From an uncultured delta proteobacterium (lineage in GTDB: Bacteria; Myxococcota_A; Polyangia; Polyangiales; Houyiibacteriaceae), in assembly GCA_963699755.1 (NCBI GenBank), contig CAVOVB010000002.1, positions 1-64,000 on the forward strand: a stretch of DNA of 64,000 nucleotides, written 5' to 3'. The translations under genes and the position numbers were made by a program. A model generated the notes under the pieces. The model did no database searches, was not told where the DNA came from, and saw nothing but the letters and a program-made list of their open reading frames with translations. Shown here one piece after another: positions 7,338 to 34,710 of the stretch (its first letter is position 1; every line of letters begins with the position of its first letter).

Positions 7338-7523
7338 CCAGACGTCCGCAAGCTCTTGCGTCACATCCGGCACGGGGATTTGTGACATTGTCATAAGAAT
7401 GTCCGGTAACGCGTTTTCTTCGTGTTCTTTGGACGTGTTCTCATCGATACCTGTCCGCGAAACCGTTCGAGAATCGTCTGAACGAGGTGAACAGCCGGCG
7501 GTTCGATTCCCACCGCCTCCACC
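7338..7523 (+). repeat. att junction 1: type-A arm plus tmRNA-like 3' end (core 7500-7523)
   Basis: GGTTCGATTCCCACCGCCTCCACC; upstream ~160 bp homologous to 10430-10590. Confidence 0.85.
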
Positions 7524-7554
7524 TATTCCTCGCGGCTCGTGAACATCGCGGCGC

Positions 7555-8793
7555 TTAGCCATTCCGACGCCGCAAGCGCAACATCACTAGAGCTGCGATG
7601 AGCCAAGCGGCGCCGTCGGACGGACTCTCTCTCACCGAGCATCCTGAACCGCCCCGAGCCATGGACTCGGAATCGGGCGGGGCGATCGAACGGCCGCTCG
7701 CCGCGAGGTCGAAGAGGAGAATACCTCGGCCTTCGGCCACCACGTCCCCATCGATGGAAAGCTGGAAGGCAAGGTGCGTCCCGTCGGGGTTCACCGTCGG
7801 ATTCGACGCGTACCAGCCTCGATAGCGGTTGAAGCGCGTGAGCCGATCCCAGGCTTGGGAGCCGTCGAGCGGCAGGAGCCATATGTCCAACGGGCCTGGT
7901 AAGAACAGGCCGTCGAGATCGCGCTCGACGAGGACCCACGCGCCATTCGGGGCGACGCCCTCCGCCTCCTCGTAGAAGGGGCTCTGGGAGTAGTTCGTCA
8001 CCAGCCCAGTCGAGAGGTCGACGCCCATGACCTCACCGCCCGCGTACGCGTACGCGGTGAAGATCAGCTCCTCGGTACCTGCGCGGAAGTCCTGCGCCTC
8101 GAGCACTGCGAACGGAAAGACCGCCGTGCGGTCGATCACCAGCTCGATGTTCTCGAGGAGGACGCGCTCGTCTTCGTAGCGTAGCTCGCCGGTCCAGATC
8201 TCCGATATGCCGTCCCGGACCCGGCTGAGCAGATCAGGGTCGGTGTAGTCGATGTCAGAGCGGTTCCACGCAATGCGCGGCGACACGTCCGACGTCACGA
8301 TTCCCTCCCAGCACGGCATGCCGAGCGGTTGCGGAGGATCTTCGAATGGCGTGCGCAGGACAGACATGACGCCGGTGAAGCGACCCGCTTCGGGACGGTC
8401 GTCACTCGGGCTCGGACCCGAGGTCGGGCCGCAGAGCAGCAGGTCGCCCGTCGGCAGGTAGTGGGCTCGCGTGAAGCCCATGTGCTCGAACCCGTCCGTC
8501 AGTCTCCGCATCGTCCCCGTCGCGATGTCGAGCTCGACGACATCGCCGAGAGGCGCTCCATCGATGAAGAGGATCCGCTCGCCGTCGGGTGACCAGTCAG
8601 GCCGAGAGCCGAAGTCAGTCAGCAGGCTGATGTACGGCGGCAGGTCGTCGAGGGGGGAGCCGTCGAGCGTCCCTCGTTCAGGGTCGCCGGGAGCCTGACC
8701 GATCGCCGGTGCGGGGACACAGACGAACGCAGCGATGGTTGCGAGCACTATAGCCGAGCTCAACATGTGGCCAGAGCCTACCATAACTCTCAT
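7555..8793 (-). CDS. TolB-like beta-propeller surface protein with MYXO-CTERM-type tail
   Basis: Signal peptide; PDWSPDGERI and NPTVNPDG repeats; C-terminal GGSGCSV...hydrophobic...RLRRR; start uncertain. Confidence 0.75.
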   Translation of the reverse strand: MRVMVGSGHMLSSAIVLATIAAFVCVPAPAIGQAPGDPERGTLDGSPLDDLPPYISLLTDFGSRPDWSPDGERILFIDGAPLGDVVELDIATGTMRRLTDGFEHMGFTRAHYLPTGDLLLCGPTSGPSPSDDRPEAGRFTGVMSVLRTPFEDPPQPLGMPCWEGIVTSDVSPRIAWNRSDIDYTDPDLLSRVRDGISEIWTGELRYEDERVLLENIELVIDRTAVFPFAVLEAQDFRAGTEELIFTAYAYAGGEVMGVDLSTGLVTNYSQSPFYEEAEGVAPNGAWVLVERDLDGLFLPGPLDIWLLPLDGSQAWDRLTRFNRYRGWYASNPTVNPDGTHLAFQLSIDGDVVAEGRGILLFDLAASGRSIAPPDSESMARGGSGCSVRESPSDGAAWLIAALVMLRLRRRNG

Positions 8794-8891
8794 CGCGGTT
8801 CGTGACGTGCGCGAATACGACACGAAGCGGCGTTCGTTCTTGCTACGCTCTCGGGACTGCGCGAGAAACAGCCGTCCCGATGTTTGGTCCA

Positions 8892-10022
8892 ATGAGAAAG
8901 CTGATCCCGCTCACCTTGGTGTTTGCATTCGCGTACGCGGTGCTCGGTCCATTGGGCTGCGGCGACAGTTCGGAGCAGAGCGCGCCGGCGATCGAGCATC
9001 CGTTTCGTCCACCCACAGGGTCGATCTACCTTCTTGCAGGGCAGGACTCGGAGCAGCTTGGAGCGATGCCTAGGGCGGGCTTCGCCGACGGATACCTCGA
9101 TCGCGTACCTGTCAGGCCAAGTGGGATTTCGCTCTACGGTGGCTTCCCCGAGCCGAATGCCAGCGAGGGATTCGACTCGCTTGCGTGGGTGCAGACCGCG
9201 AACGATTACATCGCGCTCGAAACGCTCGATGACACGATCTTCCACTTCTCGATCAACTGGGTGAACGAAGGGCAGGCGATCGCGGGTACCGACGAGGTCG
9301 TCGCGGCCGAGCAAGCCGTCCTCGAGGGGAAGCACGACGCCTTCATCGACTGGCTCGCGGACTGGTGTTCGGCCCAGCGCCTCCCGATCCTTCTGCGTCT
9401 CGGATACGAGTTCAACCGACCTGTCCAGGTGCTCTTCACCGAGGAGCGCTACGCGCCCGCCTACCGATACATCGTCGATCGGATGCGCGCTCGAGACGTT
9501 CAAGGCGTCGCCTTCGTTTGGGCTTCGGCGAACCTCAGCTTCAACCCCGACGGCCCACCGGAGCTCTGGGATTTCGATGCCTGGTACCCGGGCGACGACT
9601 ACGCCGATTGGTTCGGCTTCTCGATGTGGTTTCCCGACGTCCCCGATACAGTCATGCTCGACGAGGCGCGCGCTCGCGACAAGCCCGTCCTGCTCGCGGA
9701 AACGACACCTCTCGAGTTCAACGTCGGCGAACGCAGCTACTACCCGCTCTTCACAACCGAGGGCCAGATGCTGGACGCGGACGCAATCTGGGAAGCCTGG
9801 TGGCAGCCCATGTTCGACTTCGTCGAGCAGAACGCCGACATCATCGGCGGATGGCACTACATCGCGAACGACTGGGCCCTTGATCCGCTCTGGGGATCGA
9901 ATCCCCTTTTCCAAAACAGCGATGCGCGGGTCTGGGCAGACGACAGAATCCTGGAGCGATGGACGGAAGAGGCCTCGCGCGCACTCTTCGTGAAGCCGGT
10001 TCCGGGTCGTTTCGCCAGATAG
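8892..10022 (+). CDS. GH26-like glycoside hydrolase lipoprotein
   Basis: Lipobox LGC; LRLGYEFN, WYPGDDYADWFG, KPVLLAET (clan GH-A glutamates). Confidence 0.75.
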   Translation: MRKLIPLTLVFAFAYAVLGPLGCGDSSEQSAPAIEHPFRPPTGSIYLLAGQDSEQLGAMPRAGFADGYLDRVPVRPSGISLYGGFPEPNASEGFDSLAWVQTANDYIALETLDDTIFHFSINWVNEGQAIAGTDEVVAAEQAVLEGKHDAFIDWLADWCSAQRLPILLRLGYEFNRPVQVLFTEERYAPAYRYIVDRMRARDVQGVAFVWASANLSFNPDGPPELWDFDAWYPGDDYADWFGFSMWFPDVPDTVMLDEARARDKPVLLAETTPLEFNVGERSYYPLFTTEGQMLDADAIWEAWWQPMFDFVEQNADIIGGWHYIANDWALDPLWGSNPLFQNSDARVWADDRILERWTEEASRALFVKPVPGRFAR

Positions 10023-10089
10023 AAGCGATGGCGGATAGAGGCCGTTTCTTCTCTTGTGCCCAGCGTGCGAAGCTGTCGATTTCGTGGCG

Positions 10090-10125
10090 AGCTTGCTCGA
10101 CGAGGTTGGAGCCGAGGATGTCTGA
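10090..10125 (+). pseudogene. C-terminal stub of deleted nucleotidyltransferase
   Basis: Encodes SLLDEVGAEDV* versus DLLNEVRSEDV* of 24749-25303; same GAGGATGTCTGA stop/start overlap. Confidence 0.65.
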
Positions 10126-10369
10126 GATGAGTCCTATGATCCAAGAGCGGTACCGCGATATTCTGATGAAGCTTCCACCTGAGCAGAGGCTACTGCAGAG
10201 CTGCAGGATGTTTGCCACCGCAAAGCGCCTCGCCGAGAGCTCTATCCGATCGAAGCGAGCCGATCGGATAGACGAAGAAACCCTTGGTCGCGAGCTATTC
10301 CTCCGTCTCTATCGAACGGAGGTCCGCGGTCCTCTTCGGAGGATGGTCCTCGAGGGGCGCAAGCCATAG
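10118..10369 (+). CDS. Small helical protein (MenA1-like putative antitoxin), paralog of 25296-25550
   Basis: LMKLPPEQRLLQSCRMFATAKRLAESSIR...RELFLRLY closely matches 25296-25550. Confidence 0.75.
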   Translation: MSEMSPMIQERYRDILMKLPPEQRLLQSCRMFATAKRLAESSIRSKRADRIDEETLGRELFLRLYRTEVRGPLRRMVLEGRKP

Positions 10370-10429
10370 CAGCTCGATCCACTAACGCTCACGGGCTCGA
10401 CGAATCGCGTCGATCACCGAGAACATCGC

Positions 10430-10709
10430 ACCGACCTCCACGAGCTCCCGATTCACATCCGGGATTTGTGACATTGTCATAAGAATGTCCGGCACCGCGT
10501 TTTGTTGGTGTTCTTTGGACGTGTGTTGCTCGAACCCTGTCCGCGAAACCGTTCGAGAATCTTCGGAATCGGGTGTATCCCCGGCTGTTCGATTCCCACC
10601 GCCTCCACTACTTAAGACGAGTGATTGCTTGTGGTTAGCCACTTCGCCGATCGCCAGTGACCACGTAGTGGCCATCGTCGGCTCGTTTCGGCACCAGTTC
10701 GTCGAGTTT
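10430..10709 (+). repeat. att junction 2: type-A arm, tmRNA-like core (10587-10610) and downstream arm
   Basis: GTTCGATTCCCACCGCCTCCACTA; upstream matches 7338-7499; downstream matches 22438-22540. Confidence 0.85.
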
Positions 10710-10828
10710 GTGAACGTTTGGCCGGAGCCGTGGACGGCCTTGGGTACCTCGCCCGAGTCCACCCTTCGCTACTGCAACTTCAATGGCCGCGCCGCCGTCG
10801 AGAACGAAGTCGTCTCCGGGCCCAGGCG

Positions 10829-11668
10829 CTAGGCCGCCAGCGTGTCGAAATGTCCGAATGGGTCTTCCATCCAATCTCGGAGAATTCGATGCATCTTGGC
10901 AGCGTGCCCTCCGTCGAGAATGCGATGGTCGAATGTCGCGCCAACGTCCATCACTCTTCGCACGGCCAGTTGACCGTCCTCGACGACCGCTCGTTCTTCA
11001 ATCGACCCAAGCGCGAGCAACAGAGGCACACGGCTATACGGAACCAGCGGCACTAGTGCATACGGAAGCCCCAAGGAGCCGACGTTTGTGATCATGACCG
11101 AGCCGAAGAGGTCCTTCGGCATCCCGGCCCAGCTCATGTCGAGATTCAGCGTGTAGCTCAGAAAGCTCGTGAGTCGGAGCATGGGGCCCACGCCCCAGGA
11201 AGGGATGCGCGACATGAGGTCGCGCGAGGCCTTCAAGGCCTTGTCGGTGCCTCGGCGAACACCGCTCACTTTGGCCGAGAATTCGTCCACGATCTGCTCG
11301 AGCGTCTTTTCGTTTGGTTTCTGGATGGTTGCGCCGCTCAGGTCGATTTCGCCCGTCTTTGGGTTCTCCATCACGACCTGAAAGAAGACGCCAATGCTGT
11401 CGCGGAGATAGATTTGATTGAAGCGAAGCAGTGCGTTCGCATCCGGAACCTCTTCGAGCACGGCACCGACGGCCTTGGCGACCATGTGACTCACGGTGAG
11501 ATGTTTCCCGGTCTGTTTCCGGAAAGCATCGACGTACCGCAGAGCCTCGTCCATTTTGAGGCTCAAAACTCCATACACGGTTGGGTCGTACGGGGTATTC
11601 CAAGTCCCGAGAGCGCTCTTGCGAAACGCGGATAGCGTCTTCTTCTTGTGGAGCGGAAGATTCGGCAT
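10829..11668 (-). CDS. Stand-alone 2-oxoacid dehydrogenase E2-type acyltransferase catalytic domain
   Basis: GSVMITNVGSLG and TFDHRILDG; no lipoyl domain. Confidence 0.85.
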   Translation of the reverse strand: MPNLPLHKKKTLSAFRKSALGTWNTPYDPTVYGVLSLKMDEALRYVDAFRKQTGKHLTVSHMVAKAVGAVLEEVPDANALLRFNQIYLRDSIGVFFQVVMENPKTGEIDLSGATIQKPNEKTLEQIVDEFSAKVSGVRRGTDKALKASRDLMSRIPSWGVGPMLRLTSFLSYTLNLDMSWAGMPKDLFGSVMITNVGSLGLPYALVPLVPYSRVPLLLALGSIEERAVVEDGQLAVRRVMDVGATFDHRILDGGHAAKMHRILRDWMEDPFGHFDTLAA

Positions 11669-11720
11669 GGCGGAAGCATACGCCATCCCGCATACGAGGA
11701 GGAGGATCGTTCACGAATCC

Positions 11721-12136
11721 TGTGCCTCCTCAGAACCCCGCCGATGGCGCAATCGTTGGTGTTTCCGTACTCGGGGTCAAGCTAGCCTACCCCGATGCTT
11801 CACTTGCTGTACGTCCTGCTCGCGACCGCCAGATCGAGCCTGAAGCCGCGAGCGCGAGTCCGCCGATGGGGAGAAGGTCATCGCCCTCCCGATGGTCGGC
11901 GGACTGCATCATCTCTATGCACGACGCGCAGCCTGAGCGAAAGCCTCGGTCCCACACGACGTCGAGCGTGAGCATGAGCTGCGCGCACTGCGCGAGGCTA
12001 AGGCGCATTCCGCGCTCAATTCGCGCTTGTCGAGCCATCGGCAACGCACGTAAGGGTCCGAGCTCCGTCCGCTGGGTCACCTTCGCGATCATCGCGGCTC
12101 ATATCTCGCAGGCGGACAACGTTCTGAGGAACGACA
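11721..12136 (+). mobile_element. MITE-sized (416 bp) derivative of the TGT...ACA IS, copy 3
   Basis: TGTGCCTCCTCAGAAC ... GTTCTGAGGAACGACA; only the start and end of the transposase are kept. Confidence 0.8.
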
Positions 12137-12233
12137 GCACCGACAGCGAGTTTCTTGGGATCGAACCTCGCAAGGACGGGAAAAGTTTAGTCGGCGTGTT
12201 CACGGCTCGTCGCGGTGACTCCGTGACCTAAGC

Positions 12234-12890
12234 GTGCCAGGGACAATGATGGTCGCGCGAGGGAAAAAGCCGACGGCTCGTGGTTGGTCGCACGCCATCG
12301 CGGCGGTGATTGCGCTCGTCTTCAGCATCGCGATGGCAATGAAGACGTCGGCGAATGTTGAGCACATGCTCAGCGTCGTCGTTTTTGGCGCCAGCATGGT
12401 TCTGCTTTTTTCGATGAGCGCAGTTTACCATTTAGGCCGTTACTCAGACGGGGTGCGCCTAACGCTTCGCGCCATCGACCACTCAAACATTTATCTTCTC
12501 ATCGCGGGGACGTACACGCCGATCATCGTGATCGGTCTTGAAGGATGGCACAAGACCGTAGGTCTTTGGTCAATCTGGATCCTCGCGGTCGCGGGCGTTG
12601 TCTTCTCGGTCTTCGTGCGAGAGTCACCGCGTTGGGTTCGATTCGGCCTTTACATCGCGATGGGTTGGTTCTCGCTCTTCATCATTCCAGCCCTGTACAA
12701 AACGAGCGGCTCAGAACCGGTCGCCCTCATGGTCTGCGGCGGCGTACTCTACTCCGTAGGCGCGATCGTCTACGCAACCAAAAAACCCGATCCCTGGCCC
12801 GACACATTCGGCTTCCACGAAATCTTCCACGCGTTTGTCATCGCAGGTTGCGCGTGTTTTGCAGTGACGATTTGGATCTGGCTCTCTTAG
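12234..12890 (+). CDS. Hemolysin III / PAQR family membrane protein
   Basis: SAVYH, DHSNIYLLIAGTYTP, YIAMGW, FGFHEIFHAFV. Confidence 0.9.
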   Translation: MPGTMMVARGKKPTARGWSHAIAAVIALVFSIAMAMKTSANVEHMLSVVVFGASMVLLFSMSAVYHLGRYSDGVRLTLRAIDHSNIYLLIAGTYTPIIVIGLEGWHKTVGLWSIWILAVAGVVFSVFVRESPRWVRFGLYIAMGWFSLFIIPALYKTSGSEPVALMVCGGVLYSVGAIVYATKKPDPWPDTFGFHEIFHAFVIAGCACFAVTIWIWLS

Positions 12891-12943: not shown

Positions 12944-13226
12944 CCATCTCATCTCTCTCGGACTCGAAACAGGGTCTTTGGATCGACCAACCCCTACCCC
13001 GTTGAAGTCAAACCACGCGCAGCACGCCCCAGGCGCGACGAACGTCCGCCAGCCACTCATCCGGGCGCTGCAAGCTTGGGACACGTGTCCCGACTTGATC
13101 CGCCAACTTGGATTCACTGGGGTTTAGCGGGGTGTCAGCATCGAGACCCTTCCGCTGACCTGCCCTGGGAATTTCGGACCACGCGAAACGTGACGGACTG
13201 CCTCTTCGGGACCGTCCGGAGAGTGC

Positions 13227-13490
13227 ATGAGGAAGAGTCGATTTAGTGAAGAGCAGAAGGTGAAGATGGTGCGGGAGACCGACCAGAGCTCGGTCGCGGA
13301 AGTCGCCAAGAAGCACGGCGTGAGCGTTGAGACGCTGTACCGGTGGCGCCGGGCGTACGGCGGCATGGAGCTCCCCGAGGTCAAGCGCCTGAGGCAGCTT
13401 GAGCAGGAAAACACCCGGCTCAAGAAGCTGTTGGCGGAGCGCGACCTCGAGGTCGAGGTGATGAAGGAGATTGCCGCGAAAAAATGGTGA
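13227..13490 (+). CDS. IS3 transposase OrfA
   Basis: [10 protein letters not shown]...TLYRWRR...[14 protein letters not shown]. Confidence 0.9.
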
Positions 13491-14311
13491 GCGTGTCGAC
13501 ACGCCGTCAACAGGTGGCGTACGCCCGAGCGCGGGGCGTTTCATGTCGGCGCGCATGCGTGCTTCTGAGCGTGGCTTGCTCATCGTTGCACTACGAGTCG
13601 AAGATGGCGGTCAAAGACGCGCCCGTGGTCGCACGCATGCACGTGCACTCGGCACGTTATGCGCGCTGGGGCTACCGGCGTGTCCGCATCCTGCTCGGCC
13701 GGGATGGCATCCGGATGAGCCCGGGACGAGCGCATCGACTGTGGAAGAAGGCGGGGCTTCAGGTCCCGAAGAAACGGCGCCGACGGCGTCTAGGGGCGAG
13801 CCACCCGAGACCTCATCCCCCGACCGGCCCGAATCAGGTCTGGGCCTACGACTTCGTCTTCGATGCGTGCGCCAATGGGCAGAAGCTCAAGTGCCTCACG
13901 GTGGTCGACGAGTGGACCCACGAAGCGCTTGCCATCGATGTCGCCGGGAGCATTCGCTCCGGTCGCGTCATCGAGGTGCTTGAAACGCTCATCGGTGAAC
14001 GAGGCGCGCCGGGCACCCTGCGCTCGGACAACGGCCCGGAGTTCGTCTCGCTGGCCGTGCTCGGCTGGCTCACGCGTGTCGGCATTCAGACCGCCTTCAT
14101 CGCACCGGGCAAACCCTGGCAGAACGGCACCAACGAGAGCTTCAACGGGAAGTTTCGCGACGAGTGCCTCAACATGGAGTGGTTTCGCAATCGCGCCGAA
14201 GCCCGCGTGCACATCGAGCAGTGGCGACGCGAGTACAACGAGGTCCGACCGCACTCGAGCATCGCCTACTTGACCCGGCGGCCGTCGTCCGCCAGAATCA
14301 GCAACCCCTAA
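13484..14311 (+). CDS. IS3 transposase OrfB (DDE)
   Basis: [44 protein letters not shown]; last residues look frameshifted. Confidence 0.9.
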
Positions 14312-14653
14312 ACCAGGTCACCACGGGGGCAGCTCTGCACTAATCCATGGTCCGAAGAAACGGGGCAGGTCGGTGCCTCGCGACTGGTCGAGCCTACGGC
14401 GAAGCTCTTCCAGCGCGGGAAGAGCCCTACGGATTCGATACTCGTCAATCAGAGCTAGCGCATCAAATCGCCTGCTCTCGTTGTCAGAAAGGACCCATCC
14501 GCCCAGAACGGCATCGAAAGTCTGCTGTTCCGCACCACGAACGACGTTCGAGACCTGGGCCGCGTTCGGAATCTCGTATCCCGCCGCGCGCAGGCCCGCG
14601 ACGTCGGCGAAATCGGCCGTCGCGCCAGAACGCAACGGTAAACGCAACGCTTC

Positions 14654-14836
14654 CTAGGTCCGCTTGGCTTGACTACGGCGATCGTGGGGCTTGATCTTCC
14701 GTGCGCGTTTAGCGGCTTTGGCAAATCGCTTGGCCTCTTCGAGCCACGCCAAACGCTGGGCGGGCGTGAGTTGAAGCCAGGCCATTCGTTGCTCCTCCTC
14801 GTGGAGCTTCCAGCCGCGCCTATCCGCCGTCGTCAT
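14654..14836 (-). CDS. Small helical protein, putative antitoxin
   Basis: WLQLTPAQRLAWLEEA; overlaps the stop of the upstream NTase; start uncertain. Confidence 0.65.
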   Translation of the reverse strand: MTTADRRGWKLHEEEQRMAWLQLTPAQRLAWLEEAKRFAKAAKRARKIKPHDRRSQAKRT

Positions 14837-15344
14837 CTTGTTCCAGCATAGCATGCGCGATTTGATCAAGCTTCTCTATGTCGTCGAGGTCTTTGGGCCG
14901 GCCGGTGGTTTGCTTGAGAGACCGCAGGTCGTCCATTCCCACGACGTGCACCGTCGTGCCGTCATCCAGGACCGCGTCGAGCCGGCGAGACCAGGCCTCT
15001 TCGAAGTCGAACGGCTCTTCGACGAAGAGGTCGACCTCGGTGCCAAGGTAGCTCGGGCTCCACAGTGAGAACACGGTCAGCCCTTTCTCTTCGCGCCACT
15101 TCCTACGTACTTCGTCCTTCGCGAAGTCCTCTGCAGGAACCGGAGCACGGGGCCGATAGTCGAGCCTTTGCAGGGCCGCGATGGCGCCAAGTGCATTCGT
15201 CGGCGTCAGATCAAGAACAAGATCGAGGTCTGCCGTGAACCGGAGGTGACCGTGAAGGACGACCGCGACGCCGCCAACCGCGAGGTAGCGAACGTCCGCC
15301 TCATCGAGGACTCGAAAGATCTCAGAGAATGGACCCGTCGACAC
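14820..15344 (-). CDS. Nucleotidyltransferase, MenT/AbiEii-like putative toxin
   Basis: YLAVGGVAVVLHGHLRFTADLD, EVDLF, LKQTTGRPKDLDD. Confidence 0.85.
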   Translation of the reverse strand: MSTGPFSEIFRVLDEADVRYLAVGGVAVVLHGHLRFTADLDLVLDLTPTNALGAIAALQRLDYRPRAPVPAEDFAKDEVRRKWREEKGLTVFSLWSPSYLGTEVDLFVEEPFDFEEAWSRRLDAVLDDGTTVHVVGMDDLRSLKQTTGRPKDLDDIEKLDQIAHAMLEQDDDGG

Positions 15345-15398: not shown

Positions 15399-15570
15399 GG
15401 GACCACATGGTGATTGGAGCGCAGGGCAAGCTGGGGGATTAGAGGATACTGCGGCGCGCGTGGGTAAGAGATCGCGATGCGCGCCCTCAACGGCGATATG
15501 TGGGAAAACCGAGTATCCGCGCAGGGTTAGCGTATCGATGACAGCAGGGTTCGATTCCAACCGCCTCGAC
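15399..15570 (+). repeat. att junction 3: type-B arm plus degenerate tmRNA-like core (15547-15570)
   Basis: AAAACCGAGTATCCGCGCAGGGTTAGCGTATCGATGACAGCAGGGTTCGATTCCAACCGCCTCGAC; aligns with 25547-25720. Confidence 0.85.
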
Positions 15571-25759: not shown

Positions 25760-26285
25760 GCCAACCCCGAATAGGGTGCCGATCCCCGCGGTCGCTGCCA
25801 TGGCCAGCGCACCCCAAAAAAGTGACCCGCGCCACAGCTTTCCCGACTGGAGCGCCTCCCGCGCGGGCCGAAACCCCACCTAGCACAGCAAGGAACCCCA
25901 ACGATGTGATCGAGACGACTACCGTGATCAGTGCTTCCGGGCACATGAACGCAGTCACGAGCGGCAACGCGGCGCCCACGGAAAACGTCGCGGCGGACGC
26001 GAGAGCCGCCTGAACCGGGCGGGCGCTCATCGCTGCGGAGATGCCTAGCTCATCTCGGGCGTGCGCGCCCAACGCATCGTGTGCCATCAGTTGTTGGGCG
26101 ACCTGTCGCGCCAGCGATTTATCCAATCCAGCGACACCGGCGACCATGATGCTTTCGTGGTTGGCGTCCGCCGCAGCTACCCCGACGAGCAAGCTTGCGG
26201 TGGAGACGATCCCGTCGTTCGCGCCCAGTACCGCGGCCCGAAGCCAGCCAATGCGTTCCGTACGATGTCGTTCCTTGTGTTCGTC
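25760..26285 (-). pseudogene. VIT1/CCC1-family transporter with internal deletion and 3' frameshift
   Basis: WLRAAVLGANDGIVS; jumps from AGVAGL to DKSLARQVA, missing the usual SMAAGEY segment. Confidence 0.8.
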
Positions 26286-26808
26286 AGTCGTCACTGTCGT
26301 CGTCTGCGTCCTTATCCAACGGGATGATGTCTCCTGGCAAGACAGCTTCAGTTCCGACATAGGCCTGCGCCGCTCCGTGCTCGTAGACCAGTCGACCACC
26401 GGCTTCCCCCGCTCTGTATCCCAGCCCGAAGACCAGCAACGTGCCGAGGACGGCGGCTGCGGCGGCCGCGGTGCGCAAAGGGCCTTGAGGAAGCACCAGG
26501 GGTAAGAGCATCAGAGCAAGCACGATCGCGCTCGCCCAAACAAAAGCCTCTGCGGCTTCTTCGTGTGATTCGATGTAGCGTTCCGGCACAATCTCCTCGA
26601 CACGCTCCTCCTCGGCTTCGCCCGTGTTCATGGCGATGAGCCCCGACCCGGCCAGGGCAGCCTGGAGCAGGAGGACGAGCACCCAAAAACGGCGGTCCAC
26701 CCATCCCCGCCACCATGCCAAGGCGACGCCCCCAGTCACCAGCGGCATCAAGATCGCAAGCGCGATCGGTAGATGAACGACTTTCGGATGAAACAACAGT
26801 TGATCCAT
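26284..26808 (-). CDS. DUF2231-like membrane protein
   Basis: HPKVVHLPIAL, TGEAEEE, HEEAAE, GGRLVYEHG. Confidence 0.7.
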   Translation of the reverse strand: MDQLLFHPKVVHLPIALAILMPLVTGGVALAWWRGWVDRRFWVLVLLLQAALAGSGLIAMNTGEAEEERVEEIVPERYIESHEEAAEAFVWASAIVLALMLLPLVLPQGPLRTAAAAAAVLGTLLVFGLGYRAGEAGGRLVYEHGAAQAYVGTEAVLPGDIIPLDKDADDDSDD

Positions 26809-27016
26809 GGCAGTGACCTCCGGGCTGAACCTGGCCCTCGGCAAGGGGAGGCGCCATCGTGCGGATGTCATACGTGATGGATCTCGATGGTTCGGGGTAC
26901 CGCATTCGACACTTGTGGGGTACCTGCAGAGTGCTGCAAAGGGGGCTTGCGGCGGCGACGCGCCCAAGTAGGTTCGTCGCGTGTATCTTCTTGCATGTTC
27001 GATCGGATGAAAACAG

Positions 27017-27598
27017 TTGAGAGGTTCTGACTTCATACCGGAGCGGAGGCTTCTCGCCGGCGTGCTCGTGGCCTTCCTCGTAGTGGCAGTGCTTGCCGCC
27101 ATGGATATTTGTTCCGATCTCGAGGAAGGGACGACCTTTTCGCACGTCCTCTCCGAAACTGGTGTCCTCTTGGTAGGGTTGACTGGGTCGGTCTTCATAG
27201 CGCGTCGGCTCGTCCTCGCCCTCCGACGCGCTCGAGCCGTCGAGCGAGAAGCCGTCGATCTCAAAGAGCAGCTCGCAGTGACCCGAGGGGAGGCTCTCCG
27301 CTGGCGAAGCGAAGCTCGGGATCTGATGAACGGGCTTGCGGCAGCGATCGACCAGCAGTTTGATCGCTGGACGTTGTCGCCGGCCGAAAAGGAGACCGCG
27401 TTGCTTCTCCTGAAAGGGCTCAGTCACAAGGAGGTCGCCAGTATTCGGTCCGTCAGTGACGCGACCGCTCGCCAGCAGGCCAGGGCCGTCTACAAGAAGG
27501 CCGGGCTTTCCGGAAGGCACGACCTGGCTGCGTTCTTCCTCGAAGATCTCATGTTGCCGGCGAAAGCAGGTGACAACGGAGCTCCAGACGGAGCCTGA
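27017..27598 (+). CDS. Membrane-anchored LuxR-type HTH regulator
   Basis: Two TM helices, coiled coil, LSPAEKETALLLLKGLSHKEVA...TARQQARAVYKK. Confidence 0.85.
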   Translation: MRGSDFIPERRLLAGVLVAFLVVAVLAAMDICSDLEEGTTFSHVLSETGVLLVGLTGSVFIARRLVLALRRARAVEREAVDLKEQLAVTRGEALRWRSEARDLMNGLAAAIDQQFDRWTLSPAEKETALLLLKGLSHKEVASIRSVSDATARQQARAVYKKAGLSGRHDLAAFFLEDLMLPAKAGDNGAPDGA

Positions 27599-27635
27599 GA
27601 GGTCGTCGGTCGCGTTGCTCGACTAAAGCGCTGCC

Positions 27636-28229
27636 TCAGGTCGAGGCGTGTACTCGTCTTCGTCCTTCCCCCAAGGACACGCCGATCCCAAGACCGAGCA
27701 CCGGGCCCTTGATGCCGACGCCGCCGACTGTACCGGGCGCAATGACGTACCCCGCGCGTAGGTCGAGGCCCAACCAGAACTCCCCGCGCAGCCGCCAGTA
27801 CAAGAGCGCGCGCAGGTATGCGCTCGAGATGAACTCGTTTCGCAGGCCCATACGACCCCAGCCGAGGTCGAACATCGCGCCCGCTCCAAACCAGCGGTCC
27901 CAGTCCCCAGTGGCCCACAGAGCACCGATGGCTCCCCCCGCGGTCCGCATTTTGAGATCCTCGGGGGTTCCATCCTTGCGCCCAAAGGGGGCAAAGAATT
28001 CACCGGCCAAGTGAACGCATCTATCGGAGGGCTTGTAGAGTGACCCCAACGCGAACCCGGTGAGCGCGGCATCCGCGTTTGGATACACGCGCGTGCTGGA
28101 CCAGAGATCGGCGAAGAGCTTCGGCGCTTCTCCCTTGGAGGCGGTCTACGCCACCGCGCCCTTCGGGGCGGAGAGCAATGCCACCGCAAGGGCTGTGATT
28201 ATCATCCCGAAGATTCGTCGCGTACGCAT
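27636..28229 (-). pseudogene. Disrupted exported beta-barrel-like protein
   Basis: Signal peptide followed by TAG, then alternating beta-strand pattern in another frame. Confidence 0.45.
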
Positions 28230-28456
28230 CGCTGCCCCTCCCAGGCCGAAGCCAAGTGACCGGTACCTCACCGCGGAGAGACCTCGGGTGGACAGCAGTC
28301 GCCACCGGCTTCTCCTCCTTCCGGTCGACTGGCCCTCGGCCGAGGCGTATGGATACGAGCGGAAAGGCAATGCGGTCCTGGTGGGCTGCTCTTGCCGCCA
28401 CGCGTGGCTTCTCATCCGGAGCAGCGGATCGGTCGGAACCCCAAGAGGAATTCATC

Positions 28457-29380
28457 ATGAAGCACTTCAACATCGGCTATGCGTGGCTGTTGCCAGGAGC
28501 TCTCGCGCTTCTGCCCCACATCGTCGCAGCCCAAGAGGAGGCGAGCGCGGACGCGTCCACAGAGAGTCAAATCGTTTCAACCCCAGCGGACCCGCAGGTT
28601 GCCGAGGAAGCCAATGAAACCGAATGGACCTACCCCAAGAGCTATTCGGTGCGCCCGCTTACGATGGAGCAGGGGATGGTCCGCGCAAACGGGATTTTCA
28701 CCGTCTGGGATGACGGTGTCGACACGGTCTTCGGGATGACACTCGGCGGCTCCATCGGGGTGCTCGATGACTTGGAGTTGGGCATCAACAACTATCGTAT
28801 CGGTTCGTCGCTTCAACAGAGGTACGAAGGGCTGATCCCCGTCGTCTTTGCGCCATCGGCGGGCTTCGGAAACATGCCGCTGTACGGACGCTATCGCTTC
28901 GTGCACCGCGAGAAGCTCGACTTCGCGGGTGACCTGATCTTCGTTTTGCCGATCGACACGGCGTTCGCGCTCGAAGTGGCCTTGCCGTTCCGTATCACGC
29001 CCAACGACAGGCTTTCCGTCGACACCGGGCTCGAAGTGCGCGGGACGTTTGGCTCGGCCAAGCGCGCCGACATTCGAATTCCGGCGATCGTCAACTACAA
29101 TTTCTCTGACCGGGCGTTCATCAGCGGGGAAACCGGCGTGCAGTTCGTGAACCTGGGCAAAGGCTTCAATACCGCGCCGGCGGACACCCAGGGCGTTGCG
29201 ATCCCCATCGGATTCCGCGCCGGTGGCACTTGGAAGAAAGTAGACAAGCACCTCATCGATTTGTTTGCCGGCTTTGCATTTCCACAGTTGTTCGAACTCG
29301 GTACTAGTCGCAGCGCCGTCGACTTCGGCATCTGGGACATCTTCGTCGGCGTGGCGTTCTACACGCGTCCGCTCTTCTAG
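28457..29380 (+). CDS. Exported, probable outer-membrane beta-barrel protein
   Basis: Signal peptide, RPLT motif, amphipathic strands, terminal Phe. Confidence 0.65.
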   Translation: MKHFNIGYAWLLPGALALLPHIVAAQEEASADASTESQIVSTPADPQVAEEANETEWTYPKSYSVRPLTMEQGMVRANGIFTVWDDGVDTVFGMTLGGSIGVLDDLELGINNYRIGSSLQQRYEGLIPVVFAPSAGFGNMPLYGRYRFVHREKLDFAGDLIFVLPIDTAFALEVALPFRITPNDRLSVDTGLEVRGTFGSAKRADIRIPAIVNYNFSDRAFISGETGVQFVNLGKGFNTAPADTQGVAIPIGFRAGGTWKKVDKHLIDLFAGFAFPQLFELGTSRSAVDFGIWDIFVGVAFYTRPLF

Positions 29381-29589
29381 TATTTCAATCAAGATCCGAT
29401 TGACCAGGCGGGACAACGGCAGCCCCGCATTGGTGGATTCGGCCCCTGCGACCCTACACCAGCGGCATGGGAATCACACCGAACCCGCTCGGTGAGGCAG
29501 CACATGCTTTGGTCAGGAACACGCCCGATACGCACACAAATGAGCCGCATCCGTGCCTTCGGGACACTGATCCTATAATAGACGGGCAC

Positions 29590-30246
29590 ATGCCCGTTTC
29601 AGACACCATGGGCTGGCTCGATCAGGAAGCAGCCGGACAGCCCATCGAGGAGGAGTCCGTCTTTGACGATGAAGCGCTCGTCGAATCGCTCAGGTCGGGA
29701 GATCCCGACGCGCCGGCTCGCTTCTTCGACGCGTACGGTCGCTATGTCGAGCGACTGCTGGTTCGGGTGCTTGGCCCCGACCCCGACGTCGAGGACCTCC
29801 TGCACGATGTCTTCGCCGAGGCCCTGGGCACCATCGATCGGCTTCGGGATCCAGCTCGCCTCAAAGGGTGGCTCACGCGTATGACGGTCTTCATCGCTCG
29901 CGGCATGCTCAGACGGCGTCGGCGCCAGGGTTGGCTCTCGTTCTTGCCTGAGGAAGAGCTTCCTCCAAATCCGTCATCTTCCACGCCGCCCGAAACCCGT
30001 GATCTATTGGTACGTGTGTTTGCCGTGCTGCACCGGCTTCGACCCAATCATCGGATCGCGTTCTCCCTGCGATACATCGAGGGCATGACGCTTCCCGAGG
30101 CCGCCGAGGCGAGCGGGGTGTCGTTGGCGACCTTCAAGCGATGGCTGAAAGCTTCGGATCTCGCATTCATGAACGGCGCGCAGCGCACCGACCAAGCGCT
30201 GTACGAAGAGCTCTTGAACACGCCGCGCTGGGGGGGCTCGTCATGA
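29590..30246 (+). CDS. ECF sigma-70 factor
   Basis: DVEDLLHDVF, LKGWL, RIAFSLRYIEGMTLPEAAE..GVSLATFKRWL. Confidence 0.9.
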   Translation: MPVSDTMGWLDQEAAGQPIEEESVFDDEALVESLRSGDPDAPARFFDAYGRYVERLLVRVLGPDPDVEDLLHDVFAEALGTIDRLRDPARLKGWLTRMTVFIARGMLRRRRRQGWLSFLPEEELPPNPSSSTPPETRDLLVRVFAVLHRLRPNHRIAFSLRYIEGMTLPEAAEASGVSLATFKRWLKASDLAFMNGAQRTDQALYEELLNTPRWGGSS

Positions 30247-31649
30247 GGAAGCGCCTTGAAGAGCTCGGCGCCGAAGTCGCGCGCGTGCAGGACCAAACCT
30301 TGGCCGACGGCACGAGGCGCGCCGCGGTTCGTCGGCGGCTCTTGTCCGCCAAGAGCCGGTCGGCCCCCCCGCGTTCTTCCCGCTTGGCGCCCGCGCTCGC
30401 CTGGGCCGGGGCGATGGCCGCGATCGCGCTCGCCCTCGTCTTACTGTGGCCTTCCGTGCCCGAGCCGATCGCCTACCGCGTGGAGGGCGAAGCGGAATCG
30501 AGGCTCCTCGACCGCGAGATCGCCGCGTCCGCCGACGGAGCGAGGTCGATTGCCTTCACAGACGGTTCCGCCGTCCGGCTGAGCCCATCGGCCCGCGCCC
30601 GCGTCCGTCAGCTGAGCGCTGAGGGTGCCACTGTGGCGCTGGACCGAGGTGAAGCGACGATATCGGTCCGCCACCGCAAGGCGACTAGGTGGTCCGTAGA
30701 GGCCGGGCCGTTCCTGGTGCGCGTCACCGGTACGCGCTTCCGCGTCGGATGGCAGCCAGAAACCGAATCGTTCGAGCTCGACGTCTATGAAGGGGACGTG
30801 CGTGTGCGCGGGCCCGAGCTGCCTGAGCGAATCGTTCGTAGCGGAGAAGAGGTGCGCGAGAGGCTCACGGCGACCGTCGAGCCCGAGCCCGAAACGCCGC
30901 GAATCGAAGAGTCGATCGAGGAGCCGATGACAGATCCGGAACCCGCAGCTCGAAAGCAGACGATGCCGGCCACGCCCGCGGGCGCGTCGAGCTACGAGCC
31001 GCCGGTTCGCGCGTCTTCACCGCGCAGCTCCACCCGGCCCGAAGCAGTGCCGCTCGAGCTGAACCTTCCGCCGAAAGAACCCGGCACAAAGGTTGACCCA
31101 GATGCTGCGCCGACACCGTCCGAGACAGAGGCGCCAGATTCGACGCGACGCGAAGAAGAGCCCAAGGTGTCCGCGGAGCCTCCGAGTGCCGAGCCGCCCT
31201 CGTGGAGAACCTTGCTCGACCGACGCGACTATCGCGCTCTCTTGACCGAGCTCAGCCCCGACCAAGTCGAGCAGGCCGTCTGGCAAGCCGACGCGACCCA
31301 GTTGATCGATCTCGGCGCCGCGGCACGTGCGCTCGGTGATGCACGGGCCGGCTCGATCTACAGCGTGGCCCGGTCACGTTTTCCGGGAACGGACGCCGCC
31401 GCGGATGCTGCGTTTCTGCTCGGGCGGATCCAATTCCACTCGGGCGCCTACCGCTCCTCGGCGACTTGGTTCGCGGCCTATTTGCGCGAACGTCCCGACG
31501 GTCGCCTTGCGCGCGAAGCTGCGGGCCGGTTGGTCGAGGCCTACCATCGAAGTGAAGATCGAGAACGCGCACGCGCGGCCGCCGAGCAGTACCTCCGTCG
31601 CTACCCAAACGGTCCACACGCGGCGCTCTCCCGATCGGTGCTGCAGTGA
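30243..31649 (+). CDS. FecR-domain anti-sigma factor with Pro-rich linker and TPR-like C-terminus
   Basis: TM helix; FTDGSAVRL, VRVTGTRF; YLRRYPNGPH; ATGA overlap with the sigma gene. Confidence 0.85.
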   Translation: MRKRLEELGAEVARVQDQTLADGTRRAAVRRRLLSAKSRSAPPRSSRLAPALAWAGAMAAIALALVLLWPSVPEPIAYRVEGEAESRLLDREIAASADGARSIAFTDGSAVRLSPSARARVRQLSAEGATVALDRGEATISVRHRKATRWSVEAGPFLVRVTGTRFRVGWQPETESFELDVYEGDVRVRGPELPERIVRSGEEVRERLTATVEPEPETPRIEESIEEPMTDPEPAARKQTMPATPAGASSYEPPVRASSPRSSTRPEAVPLELNLPPKEPGTKVDPDAAPTPSETEAPDSTRREEEPKVSAEPPSAEPPSWRTLLDRRDYRALLTELSPDQVEQAVWQADATQLIDLGAAARALGDARAGSIYSVARSRFPGTDAAADAAFLLGRIQFHSGAYRSSATWFAAYLRERPDGRLAREAAGRLVEAYHRSEDRERARAAAEQYLRRYPNGPHAALSRSVLQ

Positions 31650-32575
31650 AAGACGCCGCGACCCTCTTCGTAGCCGTCCTTGTCTCGGTGAGCCCGTCCG
31701 CGAAAGCGCAGACGCGGATCGCATCCGATGCGGGGGTGGAGCCGCTCTGTGAGAGCGCCCGGGCCGAGCTCGAACAGATCGGCATTACGACGGCGACTCT
31801 GTCGGTCGGCGGCAGCACCCGTAGGACACGAAGACGCGCCTTCTCCGATACGACGGTCCAAGCGCTAATCGTGTGTCGGCCGAGGCCCGCGCGCATCGAG
31901 GTATTCTACCCAGACGGCTCCCGTCTCGGTCAGCCGGCGTTCGGCGTACAGGTATCTGACGAGGATCCGAGCGCGCCTCTCTACCTGAGCGAGCGCATCC
32001 GTGCGGAGCGCTTCGTGGCCGACGTGCCAAAACCGGTCCCGTTCAGCCCCGCCGTCTGGTGGCTTGGTTTCGGAGGCGACATATTGCTTTCGCCAGGCGG
32101 AGTGGCGCCCCTGGCTTTGATCGCGCTCGACGTCGGCTACCGGTTCCATCGTTACTGGTCGGTTCAAGCATTCGCATCCATTCAGCCGTACATGAGACGC
32201 CTCGCCACCGACGCGACGGAGACACGCCTACGCCTCGACCAGTTCGGTGCTGCCATCGCCTATCACCCCGTAGTGACCGAGCGGCTCGACCTCGCGCTTG
32301 CGGCCCGCGTGGCCGCCGCTCGGCTCGGCGCCAACGGAACGAGCACGGCTCCTACCAACGACCTCGAAAGCCAGCGCGATCAGGTGTGGCTCGCATTCCC
32401 GGCGGGGCGCGTCTCGTTGCGGGTCGGGCTCACAGAACGGATTTGGCTCCGAATGCAGGGAGAGGTCGGGGCGATCGTGCCGAAAGCCGTCGTGGCGGCC
32501 GGCGCGGGGCGGCTCGCGTCGCTAGGTGTGTTTGCAGCCCAGGCCGGGCTTGCTCTGGAGGTGCACTTCCGATGA
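31646..32575 (+). CDS. Exported protein with beta-barrel-like C-terminus
   Basis: Signal peptide, coupled to upstream gene, ends LEVHFR. Confidence 0.6.
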   Translation: MKDAATLFVAVLVSVSPSAKAQTRIASDAGVEPLCESARAELEQIGITTATLSVGGSTRRTRRRAFSDTTVQALIVCRPRPARIEVFYPDGSRLGQPAFGVQVSDEDPSAPLYLSERIRAERFVADVPKPVPFSPAVWWLGFGGDILLSPGGVAPLALIALDVGYRFHRYWSVQAFASIQPYMRRLATDATETRLRLDQFGAAIAYHPVVTERLDLALAARVAAARLGANGTSTAPTNDLESQRDQVWLAFPAGRVSLRVGLTERIWLRMQGEVGAIVPKAVVAAGAGRLASLGVFAAQAGLALEVHFR

Positions 32576-32787
32576 CCTGGCGTTGGATTGGTGTCGTCTT
32601 GGGCACACTGTGGATGGTGGGCTGCGGGGAAGCGACGGTTCGCCCTTTTGTCGACAAGTCCGATGCCGGTGTCGACGCGAGCGTCGATGCCGGCGAGGAA
32701 GATAGCGGCGGGGAAGATGGCGACGAGGAAGGCGACTTCGACGGTGGCGAGGAAGATGGCGGCGAGGACGACGGGGGTGAGGAATAG
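32572..32787 (+). CDS. Small acidic lipoprotein
   Basis: Lipobox VGC, D/E/G-rich tail, ATGA overlap. Confidence 0.55.
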   Translation: MTWRWIGVVLGTLWMVGCGEATVRPFVDKSDAGVDASVDAGEEDSGGEDGDEEGDFDGGEEDGGEDDGGEE

Positions 32788-32876
32788 AACACGAAGGGAG
32801 CGAGTCCGAGCTCTCCCTTCGTAGCCGCGGGACCCCGTAACGAGCGGACTCGGGTCCCTATCCGGGTTTCAGCGGT

Positions 32877-33881
32877 TCAGTTGTCGAGCGCGCCTTCGTC
32901 GATCCACTGAGAGAGGATCACGACGAAGCCCGCGTCGTCGGGGCCGTTGAAGTGATTTCGATTGAGCTGAGGGATGAGCGCAGCCGAGGGATCGGACGAA
33001 TCACCGGGGACCACCAACGGGAAGCCGTCCCCACCCGCCAGGATGTTGGCGTAGCTGTCGAGGTTGACACCTGCGGGGCCACTGCCACCGCTGTGGCACT
33101 GCACGCAGTTCGCCTGGCCCGCTTCGAAGTACGGTTGAATCTCTGCGGCGAACGATACGCCCATCATGGTGCCGCCGGTGCCCGCCGTGCCACCAGTTCC
33201 GCCGCTGCCGGCCATGCCGCCGCTGCCGGCCATGCCGCCGGTTCCCGCCGTGCCGCCGCTGCCGCCCGTGCCGCCCATGCCGCCCGTGCCGCCCGTGCCG
33301 CCCGTGCCGCCCGTGCCGCCCGTGCCGCCTTGATCGCAGTCGCTGTCCTCGTAGTCGTCGTCATCATCATAGTCGCCGTCATCGTGATCGCGGTCGCGGT
33401 CGCGATCGCGGTCGCCATGATGATCGTCGTCGTCATCGTGGCGATCACAGCGATCCTCGTCGCTGTCGCTGTCGCCATCACCGTCGTCGTCTTCATCGCC
33501 ATCGCTGTTGCCATCGGCATCGCTGTCGCCGTAATCGTCCTCGTCATCGTCGTACCGATGCACGCAGTCGAAGCAGGCCTGACGGAGATCTTCACAGAAG
33601 ACCAGATCATCGGTCTTGGTCGAGCAGCGATCATAGAGCGCATCGCAGTGGTCGGAGATCTCGTCGTGGTGGACACCATTGCCGGGGACCGCGTTCATGC
33701 ACTGCATGGCGCCGGCCTTGCACTCCTCGGACGACTTCTCACACGAAGCCAAGTCGTTCTGACAGCGATCGATGCGCTCCTGCACCGTCGCCGCGCTGCC
33801 GCCAACGCCTTCGGAGCCACAGGCAACGAGCAAGCTCATGACGCCGAGCACCGGCAGCCAAATGATGAATCTTGTGGGCAT
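32877..33881 (-). CDS. Lipoprotein with Cys-rich helices, Asp/His tract, GGT linker and C-terminal c-type cytochrome domain
   Basis: Lipobox VAC; CVQCH; VVPGDSS...WIDEGALDN. Confidence 0.75.
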   Translation of the reverse strand: MPTRFIIWLPVLGVMSLLVACGSEGVGGSAATVQERIDRCQNDLASCEKSSEECKAGAMQCMNAVPGNGVHHDEISDHCDALYDRCSTKTDDLVFCEDLRQACFDCVHRYDDDEDDYGDSDADGNSDGDEDDDGDGDSDSDEDRCDRHDDDDDHHGDRDRDRDRDHDDGDYDDDDDYEDSDCDQGGTGGTGGTGGTGGTGGMGGTGGSGGTAGTGGMAGSGGMAGSGGTGGTAGTGGTMMGVSFAAEIQPYFEAGQANCVQCHSGGSGPAGVNLDSYANILAGGDGFPLVVPGDSSDPSAALIPQLNRNHFNGPDDAGFVVILSQWIDEGALDN

Positions 33882-34317
33882 GCTATTTTCCTCCTGCGAA
33901 GCCGGCAGCCTGATTGCGCCGCGGTCCACCCTTCTCCAGTGTTCGGTGCGTCCGAGATCGGCTCGCATCTCTACAACTGCGTACAAAAGGGCGATTTTGG
34001 GCACAGCGGACGACGATTCTCTACCGCCCTCGCTCAGGTCCGCGGCCGCGGGCTTCCGCGAACGAGTGTCCTTGAGACCGGGGATCGGGGGCTCTGCCGG
34101 TGAGGCTCGCTTGCACTCAACACGGTTGTCGCGGTCGAGACGGGCGGCCTGCTGGCCGAAGCGGTGGCCTACATCGGCAAAGGGATGACCATTCCGCGCA
34201 AGGTGAGCGCCGATGTTATCACCGTGTTCGCGCTCTCGTTTGCATTCTTCTGGGGCGCGCCTGGAGTTGGCGCGCGTCGATGGACGGTCAAGCGCTTACA
34301 CCAGCCCGAACTTGTCA

Positions 34318-34710
34318 GTGACCAAATAGTCAACGCGCCGACACCGAAGCGCTTCGCACATGGACCAATCGAATTGCGCTCCGGCGAGGCAAGCGCATCG
34401 CAGCGGTCGCGTTGGCGCGAAAGCTCGCGGGCATCTTGTTTGCGATGTGGCGCGATGGCACCGGCTGTCGAGCGCGAACAGAAGGATGACGACCATCTCG
34501 CCACGACGAGTCAACAACGACAAACTTTGAACTTGACCGGGGACACCGCTTCACAGAAGGGACCAAAGCGCAGGGCGAACAGGGCGACTGCAGGGTACGA
34601 GAGTAAGAGGTCGGACTGCATGTCTTCCAAAGCGATACGCAGCAAACCGAGTGTCCACGTAGGGTTAGCGTATCGCTGACAGCAGGGTTCGATTCCCACC
34701 GCCTCCACCA
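34318..34710 (+). repeat. att junction 6: type-B arm (interrupted at 34330-34559) plus tmRNA-like core (34685-34710)
   Basis: Core identical to junctions 4 and 5; arm aligns to 25547-25694 once the insert is removed. Confidence 0.9.
34330..34559 (+). mobile_element. IS110/IS1111-family remnant (transposase C-terminus and right end)
   Basis: 34340-34489 translates ...RRGKRIAAVALARKLAGILFAMWRDGT...; TTGACC near the right end. Confidence 0.75.

Follow-up and report, generated by a model that had tools for sequence, protein, structure and literature searches.

The first 64,000 bp of contig CAVOVB010000002.1 from an uncultured delta proteobacterium of the Polyangiales (assembly GCA_963699755.1), hereafter the window, contain six same-strand junctions built around the 3′ end of ssrA, the gene for transfer-messenger RNA (tmRNA), and this region is probably the outer portion of an island that grew by accretion at ssrA and consists of decayed integrative elements. 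The source genome, G000, comprises 11 contigs (prefix C; the window is C2:1-64000) and is rated 100% complete and 9% contaminated; relatives from the same genus are designated by further G numbers. Each junction (J1–J6) consists of a core with a right arm upstream and, where one is recognisable, a left arm downstream, and segments are the core-to-core stretches between junctions.

Such an island would probably have formed as follows. Small integrative mobilizable elements (IMEs) with at least five integrase types would recombine in the T-loop of ssrA, each laid out with a tyrosine integrase facing ssrA, an excisionase, mobilisation genes and cargo, often with a toxin–antitoxin pair beside the right end. 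Each new arrival would restore ssrA, push earlier residents outward, and leave a core with the right arm of one element on one side and its neighbour's left arm on the other. The resident elements would then lose their integrase and mobilisation genes through deletion and insertion sequence (IS) insertion; the remainder would be cargo bounded by attachment (att) sites, i.e., cis-mobilizable elements (CIMEs), with elements that no longer have both cognate arms persisting as fixed relics.

Junctions and their target gene

The 24-mer proposed in the original prediction occurs at 7501 and 10587 (1 mismatch each) and at 22414, 25697, and 34687 (0 mismatches each), with a sixth copy at 15549 differing at 4 of 24 positions. 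All six same-strand repeats were therefore recovered, 0–2 bases from the starts first given, and none is expected by chance, with 100 shuffles of the window yielding a mean of 0.00 matches. The repeat is real; its proposed extent needs correction, as the common part spans 22 bp, after which ssrA continues with TA rather than CA. Segment sizes agree with those anticipated (J1–J2, 3086 bp; J2–J3, 4962 bp; J3–J4, 6865 bp; J4–J5, 3283 bp; J5–J6, 8990 bp), as does the division of the right arms into type A (J1 and J2) and type B (J3–J6). A downstream arm had been proposed as common to J2, J4, and J5; this holds for J2 and J4, which carry the type-B left arm, and fails for J5, where a type-A left arm follows instead, kept for its first 57 bp only (93% identity). 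Beyond the six, three relic junctions were found (13059-13155, 37119-37195, and 46256-46296), the latter two implying that the array once reached further to the right.

Within the window, ARAGORN and Rfam detected no tRNA, tmRNA, or other Rfam match, a Pfam scan of 56 open reading frames (ORFs) detected no tyrosine integrase, and tblastn with five integrase types returned only short IntB tips at J2 and J4, bearing out the claim that the window holds neither an intact integrase nor a full ssrA. The only tmRNA gene in G000 is on the minus strand of C8 (5752-6112), at a distance of 5.7 kb from where the contig ends, and the last 22 bases of the gene are identical to the core; the core is thus the tmRNA 3′ end, as predicted. 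That ssrA would be found on the window's own contig with a tyrosine integrase nearby was half right: the window repeats are co-oriented; ssrA itself is on another contig, with an intact integrase right behind it.

The gene order following ssrA on C8 is IntB, an HTH_17 protein taken as the excisionase, two small ORFs, NikA/MobC, and a MobP relaxase. IntB is a 368-aa tyrosine integrase facing ssrA (PF00589, 2.9e-30) whose translation contains the R, K, HxxR, H, and Y motifs and whose gene ends inside the ssrA-adjacent arm. The relaxase scores above the NF041893 cut-off and is frameshifted near codon 415; no match to the coupling-protein or VirB4 families (PF02534, PF03135) was found in G000. Judged by gene content, the element at ssrA is an IME with its own integrase and relaxase and no mating-pore genes found, its right end lying beyond the contig break. 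The downstream arms of J2 and J4 match the ssrA-adjacent arm at 88% over 124 bp and 85% over 193 bp, respectively. Identity among all junction types starts at the T-loop, which fits a crossover in that part of ssrA, a placement guided by what is generally known of tRNA-targeting integrases.

That the window's left part belongs to the ssrA array, and that C8 would be linked to C2, is likely from three relatives. G008 has one contig running from ssrA through blocks 91–99% identical to window 1-7523, and the type-A junction that closes the matching element is the same; G014 matches the end of C8 at 95% and window 7501-8881 at 94%, the two matches sharing one orientation with a spacing of 4.8 kb; and the G062 array includes window 1-857 and 3571-5178. 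The gene at 6758-7261, together with right arm A, is common to G001, G008, and G013 at 87–97%. Window 1-700 holds a CoA-transferase family III fragment with 50% G+C compared to 62% for the genome, matching G008 at 98% and G062 at 91%. On the other side, no arm or core occurs in C2:64001-104000 and the distal island boundary was not found there; C2:90300-94300 is conserved in 36 of 54 relatives, and its place relative to ssrA is not fixed.

Arm types, integrases and element ends across the genus

Arrays were fetched from relatives of the genus at loci picked by similarity to the window. Four right-arm types (A–D) and five left-arm types (A–E) are present; within a type, the left arm has a short direct repeat in common with the right arm, and the integrase gene of that type ends inside the left arm. 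At least five integrase types use the ssrA core: IntA (G023, G042), IntB (G000, G011, G016, G020), IntC (G013, G064), IntD (G012, G056), and IntE (G003). Integrases A, C, D, and E are 37–54% identical to one another and B is 25–29% identical to them. Elsewhere in G000, an integrase 45% identical to IntE (C1:135253-136377) ends beside tRNA-Ser(TGA), which implies that the A/C/D/E clade also targets a tRNA.

The two ends of a segment tend to be of one type. Among 57 segments examined, 28 were typed at both ends and 20 of these matched, compared to a permutation mean of 8.8 (0/20,000 permutations), a p-value that overstates the case as similarity-chosen loci and kin genomes are not independent. 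In a control pairing the right and left arms within one junction, 8 of 35 matched (mean 12.2). A second set of 14 segments gave 3 matches in 6 typed, for a total of 23 of 34. Matched end types imply that the segments are real elements with cognate ends; one of those counted, J2–J3 (B–B), hides a D arm and is composite.

The core is present in 49 of 54 genus genomes, with 3–14 copies in 30 of them. The element at the head of the array, directly at ssrA, varies (IntB, IntA, IntD, IntE, or none); untyped sequence follows ssrA in G013, G018, and G022, and no clearly empty ssrA site was identified among the relatives. Cross-genome comparison of content and order upheld the expectation that relatives differ in neighbours with breakpoints at the core. 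In G050 (L153:8452-8580), a gene-less micro-element with duplicated C arms lies between two cores spaced by 108 bp, and G012 has a similar arrangement with 114-bp spacing.

These results bear directly on whether the array is a true integron-like system, in which one resident integrase would capture promoterless single-gene cassettes at a fixed site. Same-strand repeats between unrelated cargo, recurrent toxin–antitoxin pairs, and an intact integrase at the array head would all suit such a system, and sedentary chromosomal integrons are likewise arrays of accessory modules with interspersed toxin–antitoxin pairs. However, IntB reaches only 84.9 bits against the integron-integrase model TIGR02249 (cut-off, 265), the head element differs between genomes, and the junctions pair a T-loop core with distant direct arm repeats rather than attC palindromes (as judged without an attC covariance model). 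Unlike sedentary chromosomal integrons, the array has no IntI and no single resident integrase, and its cargo is multi-gene, lies in both orientations, and includes regulators and IS scars. With at least five integrase types, internal integrases, and a varying head element, the integron-like array of the original prediction finds no support as one served by a single integrase; we consider a true integron-like system largely refuted already and exceedingly improbable.

Decay and movement of the elements

Among the 20 matched segments, a full integrase remains in 3, 348 codons in 1, and fewer than 90 codons in 16. IntB homology stops 175, 191 (J4), 202, ~680, and ~984 bp from the core in different elements; such staggered end points imply independent deletions, and hence segments that are deletion relics of IMEs rather than purpose-built cassettes. 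Relatives G016, G064, G050, and G043 retain complete integrases at internal junctions, with others truncated at staggered points. At J2, the left end (10710-10817) has 200–270 bp in common with left ends in G002, G008, G013, and G023 (77–87%), reaching beyond the IntB match, and would, from this similarity, be one old deletion lineage present in different arrays.

The window itself displays the decay. Segments J1–J2 and J3–J4 are without a typed left arm, J5–J6 has only the 57-bp partial A left arm, and the ends of J2–J3 are degraded (3 mismatches in the left arm repeat; mutated core and repeat at J3), leaving J4–J5 as the only segment with two near-intact ends (1 mismatch per arm repeat, perfect cores). 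No relaxase or MobC was found in the window, and no window segment matches the C8 region between the replication-like ORFs and mobC. The window segments are putative CIMEs derived by deletion and without functional integrase or transfer genes. The original prediction held that arms are better kept than integrases; J4–J5 and many type-B right arms are well kept, and other window arms are missing, truncated, or split by an IS. Passive decay of old islands, which had been offered as the alternative, fits better when combined with continued site-specific shuffling.

Island parts have also moved. With G000 as the reference, the IntB genes of G011 and G020 reach 98% identity and their core loci (4 kb) 79% and 85%, and G000 and G008 have island blocks 94–99.8% identical with a core locus at 71%; a recent spread of island parts between species is shown by comparisons of this kind. 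Very small integrase-less elements, as had been envisaged, do exist in relatives, at 1–1.8 kb with only a toxin–antitoxin pair. It may be asked whether such minimal, non-autonomous elements are kept by selection and moved in trans by cognate integrases independently of their neighbours, making the array a gene-capture platform. An integrase-less C–C cassette of 1,021–1,023 bp encoding HigB/HigA recurs end to end in G011, G023, and G046 at 90–92% with differing flanks (G011–G023 core locus, 77.8%), with the limit that the G023 copy offers only 4 upstream bases for flank comparison. Starting at the core, an A–A cassette of 1,080 bp shows 99.1% identity over 925 bp in a comparison of G008 with G042; its upstream arm is of type A in one and type B in the other, but these genomes also share neighbouring island blocks at 97–98%, such that co-transfer of a larger block explains the match. 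The right 1.0–1.25 kb of J4–J5 is 90–91% identical to B–B elements of 1,184 bp (G048) and 1,546 bp (G044, directly at ssrA), and in one public sediment sample a contig has segment 1 preceded, across the core, by another type-B arm. Such arrangements show that recombination at the core went on once the integrase had been lost. Against trans movement stand the single window segment with two near-intact ends, the lack of any segment matching the C8 region noted above, the absence of PF02534 and PF03135 matches in G000, and the circle search, in which four public contig sets (up to 3 samples, 2 studies; contigs, not raw reads) contained no excision circle or circle junction. Cassette recurrence would fit trans mobilisation and co-transfer or neighbour exchange alike, and these data do not separate them. 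We rate a pool of trans-moved minimal elements as rather unlikely, also when confined to a subset of segments alongside accretion and decay, with mobilisation in trans plausible only for J4–J5 and for the small toxin–antitoxin cassettes of the relatives. Like other elements with both cognate arms, J4–J5 is probably still excisable by a matching integrase, alone or together with an element upstream.

Candidate excision products among the public contigs were rejected. Contig skips from 22435 to 25699 and from 10612 to 25699 are supported by only 30 and 22 letters, respectively, and a joint from 25695 to 7500 has a B arm differing at 23 of 148 positions, i.e., it is another strain's neighbour.

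A more speculative extension, which we rate as rather doubtful, is that ssrA hosts a guild of five integrase types together with miniature parasites of 1–1.8 kb, each with two cognate att arms and a toxin–antitoxin pair (HigBA, Xre-RES, AbrB-PIN, or nucleotidyltransferase pairs). These would be excised in trans by the matching integrase, pass from one species to another, make the array more stable through addiction, and act as a chassis for picking up cargo, as J4–J5 would have done. If true, miniature att/toxin–antitoxin elements would be to integrative elements what miniature inverted-repeat transposable elements are to transposons.

Several points weigh against an island grown by accretion and decay at ssrA, in addition to the dependence among the segment counts described above. 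C8 and C2 are separate contigs not joined in the assembly, and the 9% contamination weakens their link; extra arms occur on C1, C3, and C7. Of the 34 typed segments, 11 have ends that do not match, and among all 71 segments a typed end is lacking in 37. The proportion of matched segments retaining fewer than 90 integrase codons (16/20) is more than slow random decay might suggest, at least 32 of 41 type-B right arms keep their repeat at a fixed distance, most of these with 0–2 mismatches, and integrase-less elements sit directly at ssrA in G006, G008, and G044. The contamination also raises the prospect that the array is an assembly or binning artefact, as do the G008 island pieces with their high identity despite a 71% core locus, and the fact that no contig from the four public sets spans the whole stretch. 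Yet the same arm-type arrays are found in many independent assemblies, the copies differ through substitutions, truncations, and IS insertions, and the island blocks of G008 recur in G062 and G042 at 97–99%, which makes an artefact very improbable.

As to the extra arms, the C7 stretch (L090:7403-8976) has a type-B right arm, a degenerate core, and a type-C left arm. After these comes a tyrosine integrase that is unrelated and has been shortened internally. The far end of the G008 array matches C7:1-3160 at 99.8%, and the C7 stretch may be another ssrA-island piece or contamination. A stray type-A right arm with a partial core lies at C1:441164-441247, ~23 kb from a tRNA-Lys integrase, and a type-A left arm without a core at C3:16139-16190. 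C9 repeats part of C3, consistent with the contamination figure.

Cargo, related systems and meaning

Features of the window are listed in Table 1. The cargo of the segments comprises metabolic, regulatory, and surface genes on both strands with no common theme; that of segment 5 is partly paralogous to C1:1.93 Mb. More widely, window 29536-33906 and 58466-63952 are paralogous to C1:1.91-1.93 Mb at 66–86%. Coding repeats of 9 bp (Gly-Thr-Gly-Gly-Met type) and acidic low-complexity tails occur at 33170-33550 and 44300-46280 in secreted-looking proteins.

Table 1. Junctions, relic junctions, cargo, and insertion sequences in the window
Feature	Position	Strand	Details
Left part of array	855..6535	+	cargo between IS relics 855-1649 and 5765-6535; homologous to ssrA-proximal element of G008 and G062
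Nucleotidyltransferase-like gene	6758..7261	+	just upstream of right arm A; weak DUF2204 match
J1	7345..7522	+	type-A right arm, core 7501-7522; no typed left arm after
Segment 1 cargo	7523..10436		beta-propeller/MYXO-CTERM protein 7555-8892 (−); GH26-like protein 8802-10022 (+)
Segment 1, relic of nucleotidyltransferase partner gene	10118-10363	+	
J2	10437..10710	+	type-A right arm, core 10587-10608, type-B left arm (repeat 3 mismatches/17) overlapping last codons of IntB-type gene
Segment 2 cargo	10829..12890		2-oxoacid dehydrogenase acyltransferase domain 10829-11686 (−); HlyIII-family membrane protein 12234-12890 (+)
Segment 2, IS relic	11721-12136		
Hidden relic junction	13059..13155	+	type-D right arm, 98% to G011; interrupted before its core by IS3-family element
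IS3-family element	13156..14371	+	HTH_Tnp_1 and rve ORFs
Toxin–antitoxin-like pair	14654..15344	−	DUF6036 nucleotidyltransferase 14820-15344; small partner 14654-14869
J3	15401..15570	+	type-B right arm (repeat 5 mismatches/17), mutated core 15549-15570 (2 mismatches/22); no typed left arm after
Segment 3 cargo	16785..22282		bestrophin-like protein, IS3 relic, Rieske/KshA-like oxygenase, fatty-acid desaturase, TetR regulator
J4	22341..22604	+	truncated type-B right arm without arm repeat, core 22414-22435, type-B left arm (repeat 1 mismatch/17); last ~42 codons of IntB-type gene at 22468-22596 (−), 74% aa identity
Segment 4 cargo	22728..25550		TetR 22728-23303 (−); alpha/beta hydrolase 23297-24259 (+)
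Segment 4, AbrB/MazE-type gene	24470-24691	+	5′-truncated
Segment 4, nucleotidyltransferase and partner	24749-25303; 25296-25550	+	partner of 84 aa
J5	25547..25753	+	complete type-B right arm (repeat 1 mismatch), core 25697-25718, then 57 bp of type-A left arm without repeat
Segment 5 cargo	26284..34004		DUF2231 membrane protein, LuxR-like regulator, ECF sigma factor, FecR-like protein, PSCyt1-domain protein
J6	34318..34708	+	type-B right arm, core 34687-34708; arm repeat split by IS110 relic 34333-34559
Partial type-B right arm	37119..37195	+	no core; IS110 relic precedes
Degenerate D-like junction	46256..46296	+	3 mismatches/22; 83% over 41 nt to type-D arm end

In the window, 4 of the 6 right arms have a nucleotidyltransferase gene, its small partner, or the relic of such a partner upstream, and in relatives the same place before a right arm is taken by HigBA, Xre-RES, AbrB-PIN, or YafQ/HTH (helix-turn-helix) pairs. 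Toxin–antitoxin genes are near 26 of 73 right arms, and 30 of 49 such loci fall within 11% of the bases, counts that are descriptive only since the queries were picked from near-arm genes and are thus circular. An addiction role protecting the right end from deletion would be a reasonable interpretation of this placement. Pfam assigns the gene at J3 to the DUF6036 nucleotidyltransferases. MenA1–MenT1 (Rv0078B/Rv0078A) is a nucleotidyltransferase toxin–antitoxin pair, and the window pairs resemble it only weakly, in combining a nucleotidyltransferase with a small helical partner; matches to PDB 8an4 are weak (E 0.18–0.23), as is that to a PF18993-bearing cluster (0.89; 17% of members), and serve as leads only. 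The window partners differ in giving no PF18993 match at E ≤ 0.1, and membership in MenA1 is not confirmed. For a G008 gene labelled ParE-like, Pfam gave no match; only its partner matched (PF09720).

Some cargo boundaries, such as those of the HlyIII-family module (12117-12926), coincide with IS ends and not with cores, which implies that IS elements also deliver genes. The sequences at 855-1649, 5765-6535, 11721-12136, and 12927 are several copies of a single IS that have internal deletions, short inverted repeats at their termini, and an rve_3 remnant, and cargo matches in relatives often end where these copies end. IS110 relics (34333-34559 and 37016-37097) twice adjoin the type-B arm repeat, with the same IS end beside the second half of the repeat; full IS110 copies on C7 and C1 have other flanks, and a preference of IS110 for this repeat as a target is possible.

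The mechanism of accretion and decay is already known from other bacteria. Dehalococcoides carries 31 tandem ssrA islands, 15 of them without an integration module and proposed to be cis-mobilizable (McMurdie et al. 2011, PMC3146451). There, and probably here too, tandem islands follow ssrA with a ~20-bp repeat of the gene's 3′ end as their boundary, and integration genes lie on the reverse strand beside attL; in contrast, the Dehalococcoides module is described with a serine recombinase (DsiB), whereas five or more tyrosine-integrase types are found here, each with arm repeats of its own, along with MobP relaxase modules and cassettes reduced to a toxin–antitoxin pair. In streptococci, a three-step model of integration, decay, and accretion has been put forward for IMEs and CIMEs (Guedon et al. 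2017, PMC5704250), and CIMEs of 1.2–13 kb are reported, decay being greatest in the elements that lie at the largest distance from the target gene (PMC7563491). Shared features in these accounts are att-bounded decayed elements that have lost their recombination and transfer genes, gene-less microCIMEs, and unrelated integrases on one site (PMC5704250, PMC7563491); the streptococcal composites described comprise two or three elements, whereas the array in the window numbers six clear junctions plus three relic ones, and cores reach up to 14 in relatives. Successive integration of Prochlorococcus tycheposons at tRNA/tmRNA ends likewise pushes older elements outward, leaving partial gene copies and fragmented integrases (bioRxiv 10.1101/2020.12.28.424599); as described in that preprint, tycheposons have replication modules and no relaxase, whereas the autonomous elements here have MobC and a MobP relaxase. 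A search of titles and abstract beginnings, with subscription journals not covered, returned no publication on the arrays of this genus or on att cassettes holding only a toxin–antitoxin pair.

Ultimately, the region is probably an instance of a known mechanism, and not an integron, that reveals a large variable island in an uncultured Polyangiales-type genus, formed through repeated insertion at one essential gene followed by decay, with near-identical blocks exchanged between species whose core genes are only 71–85% alike. Its added value is that of a natural test set, in which five integrase types with distinct arm repeats act on one core and a graded series of decay is preserved. With the tiny toxin–antitoxin cassettes, it could be tested directly if elements without an integrase are moved in trans or merely hitchhike.

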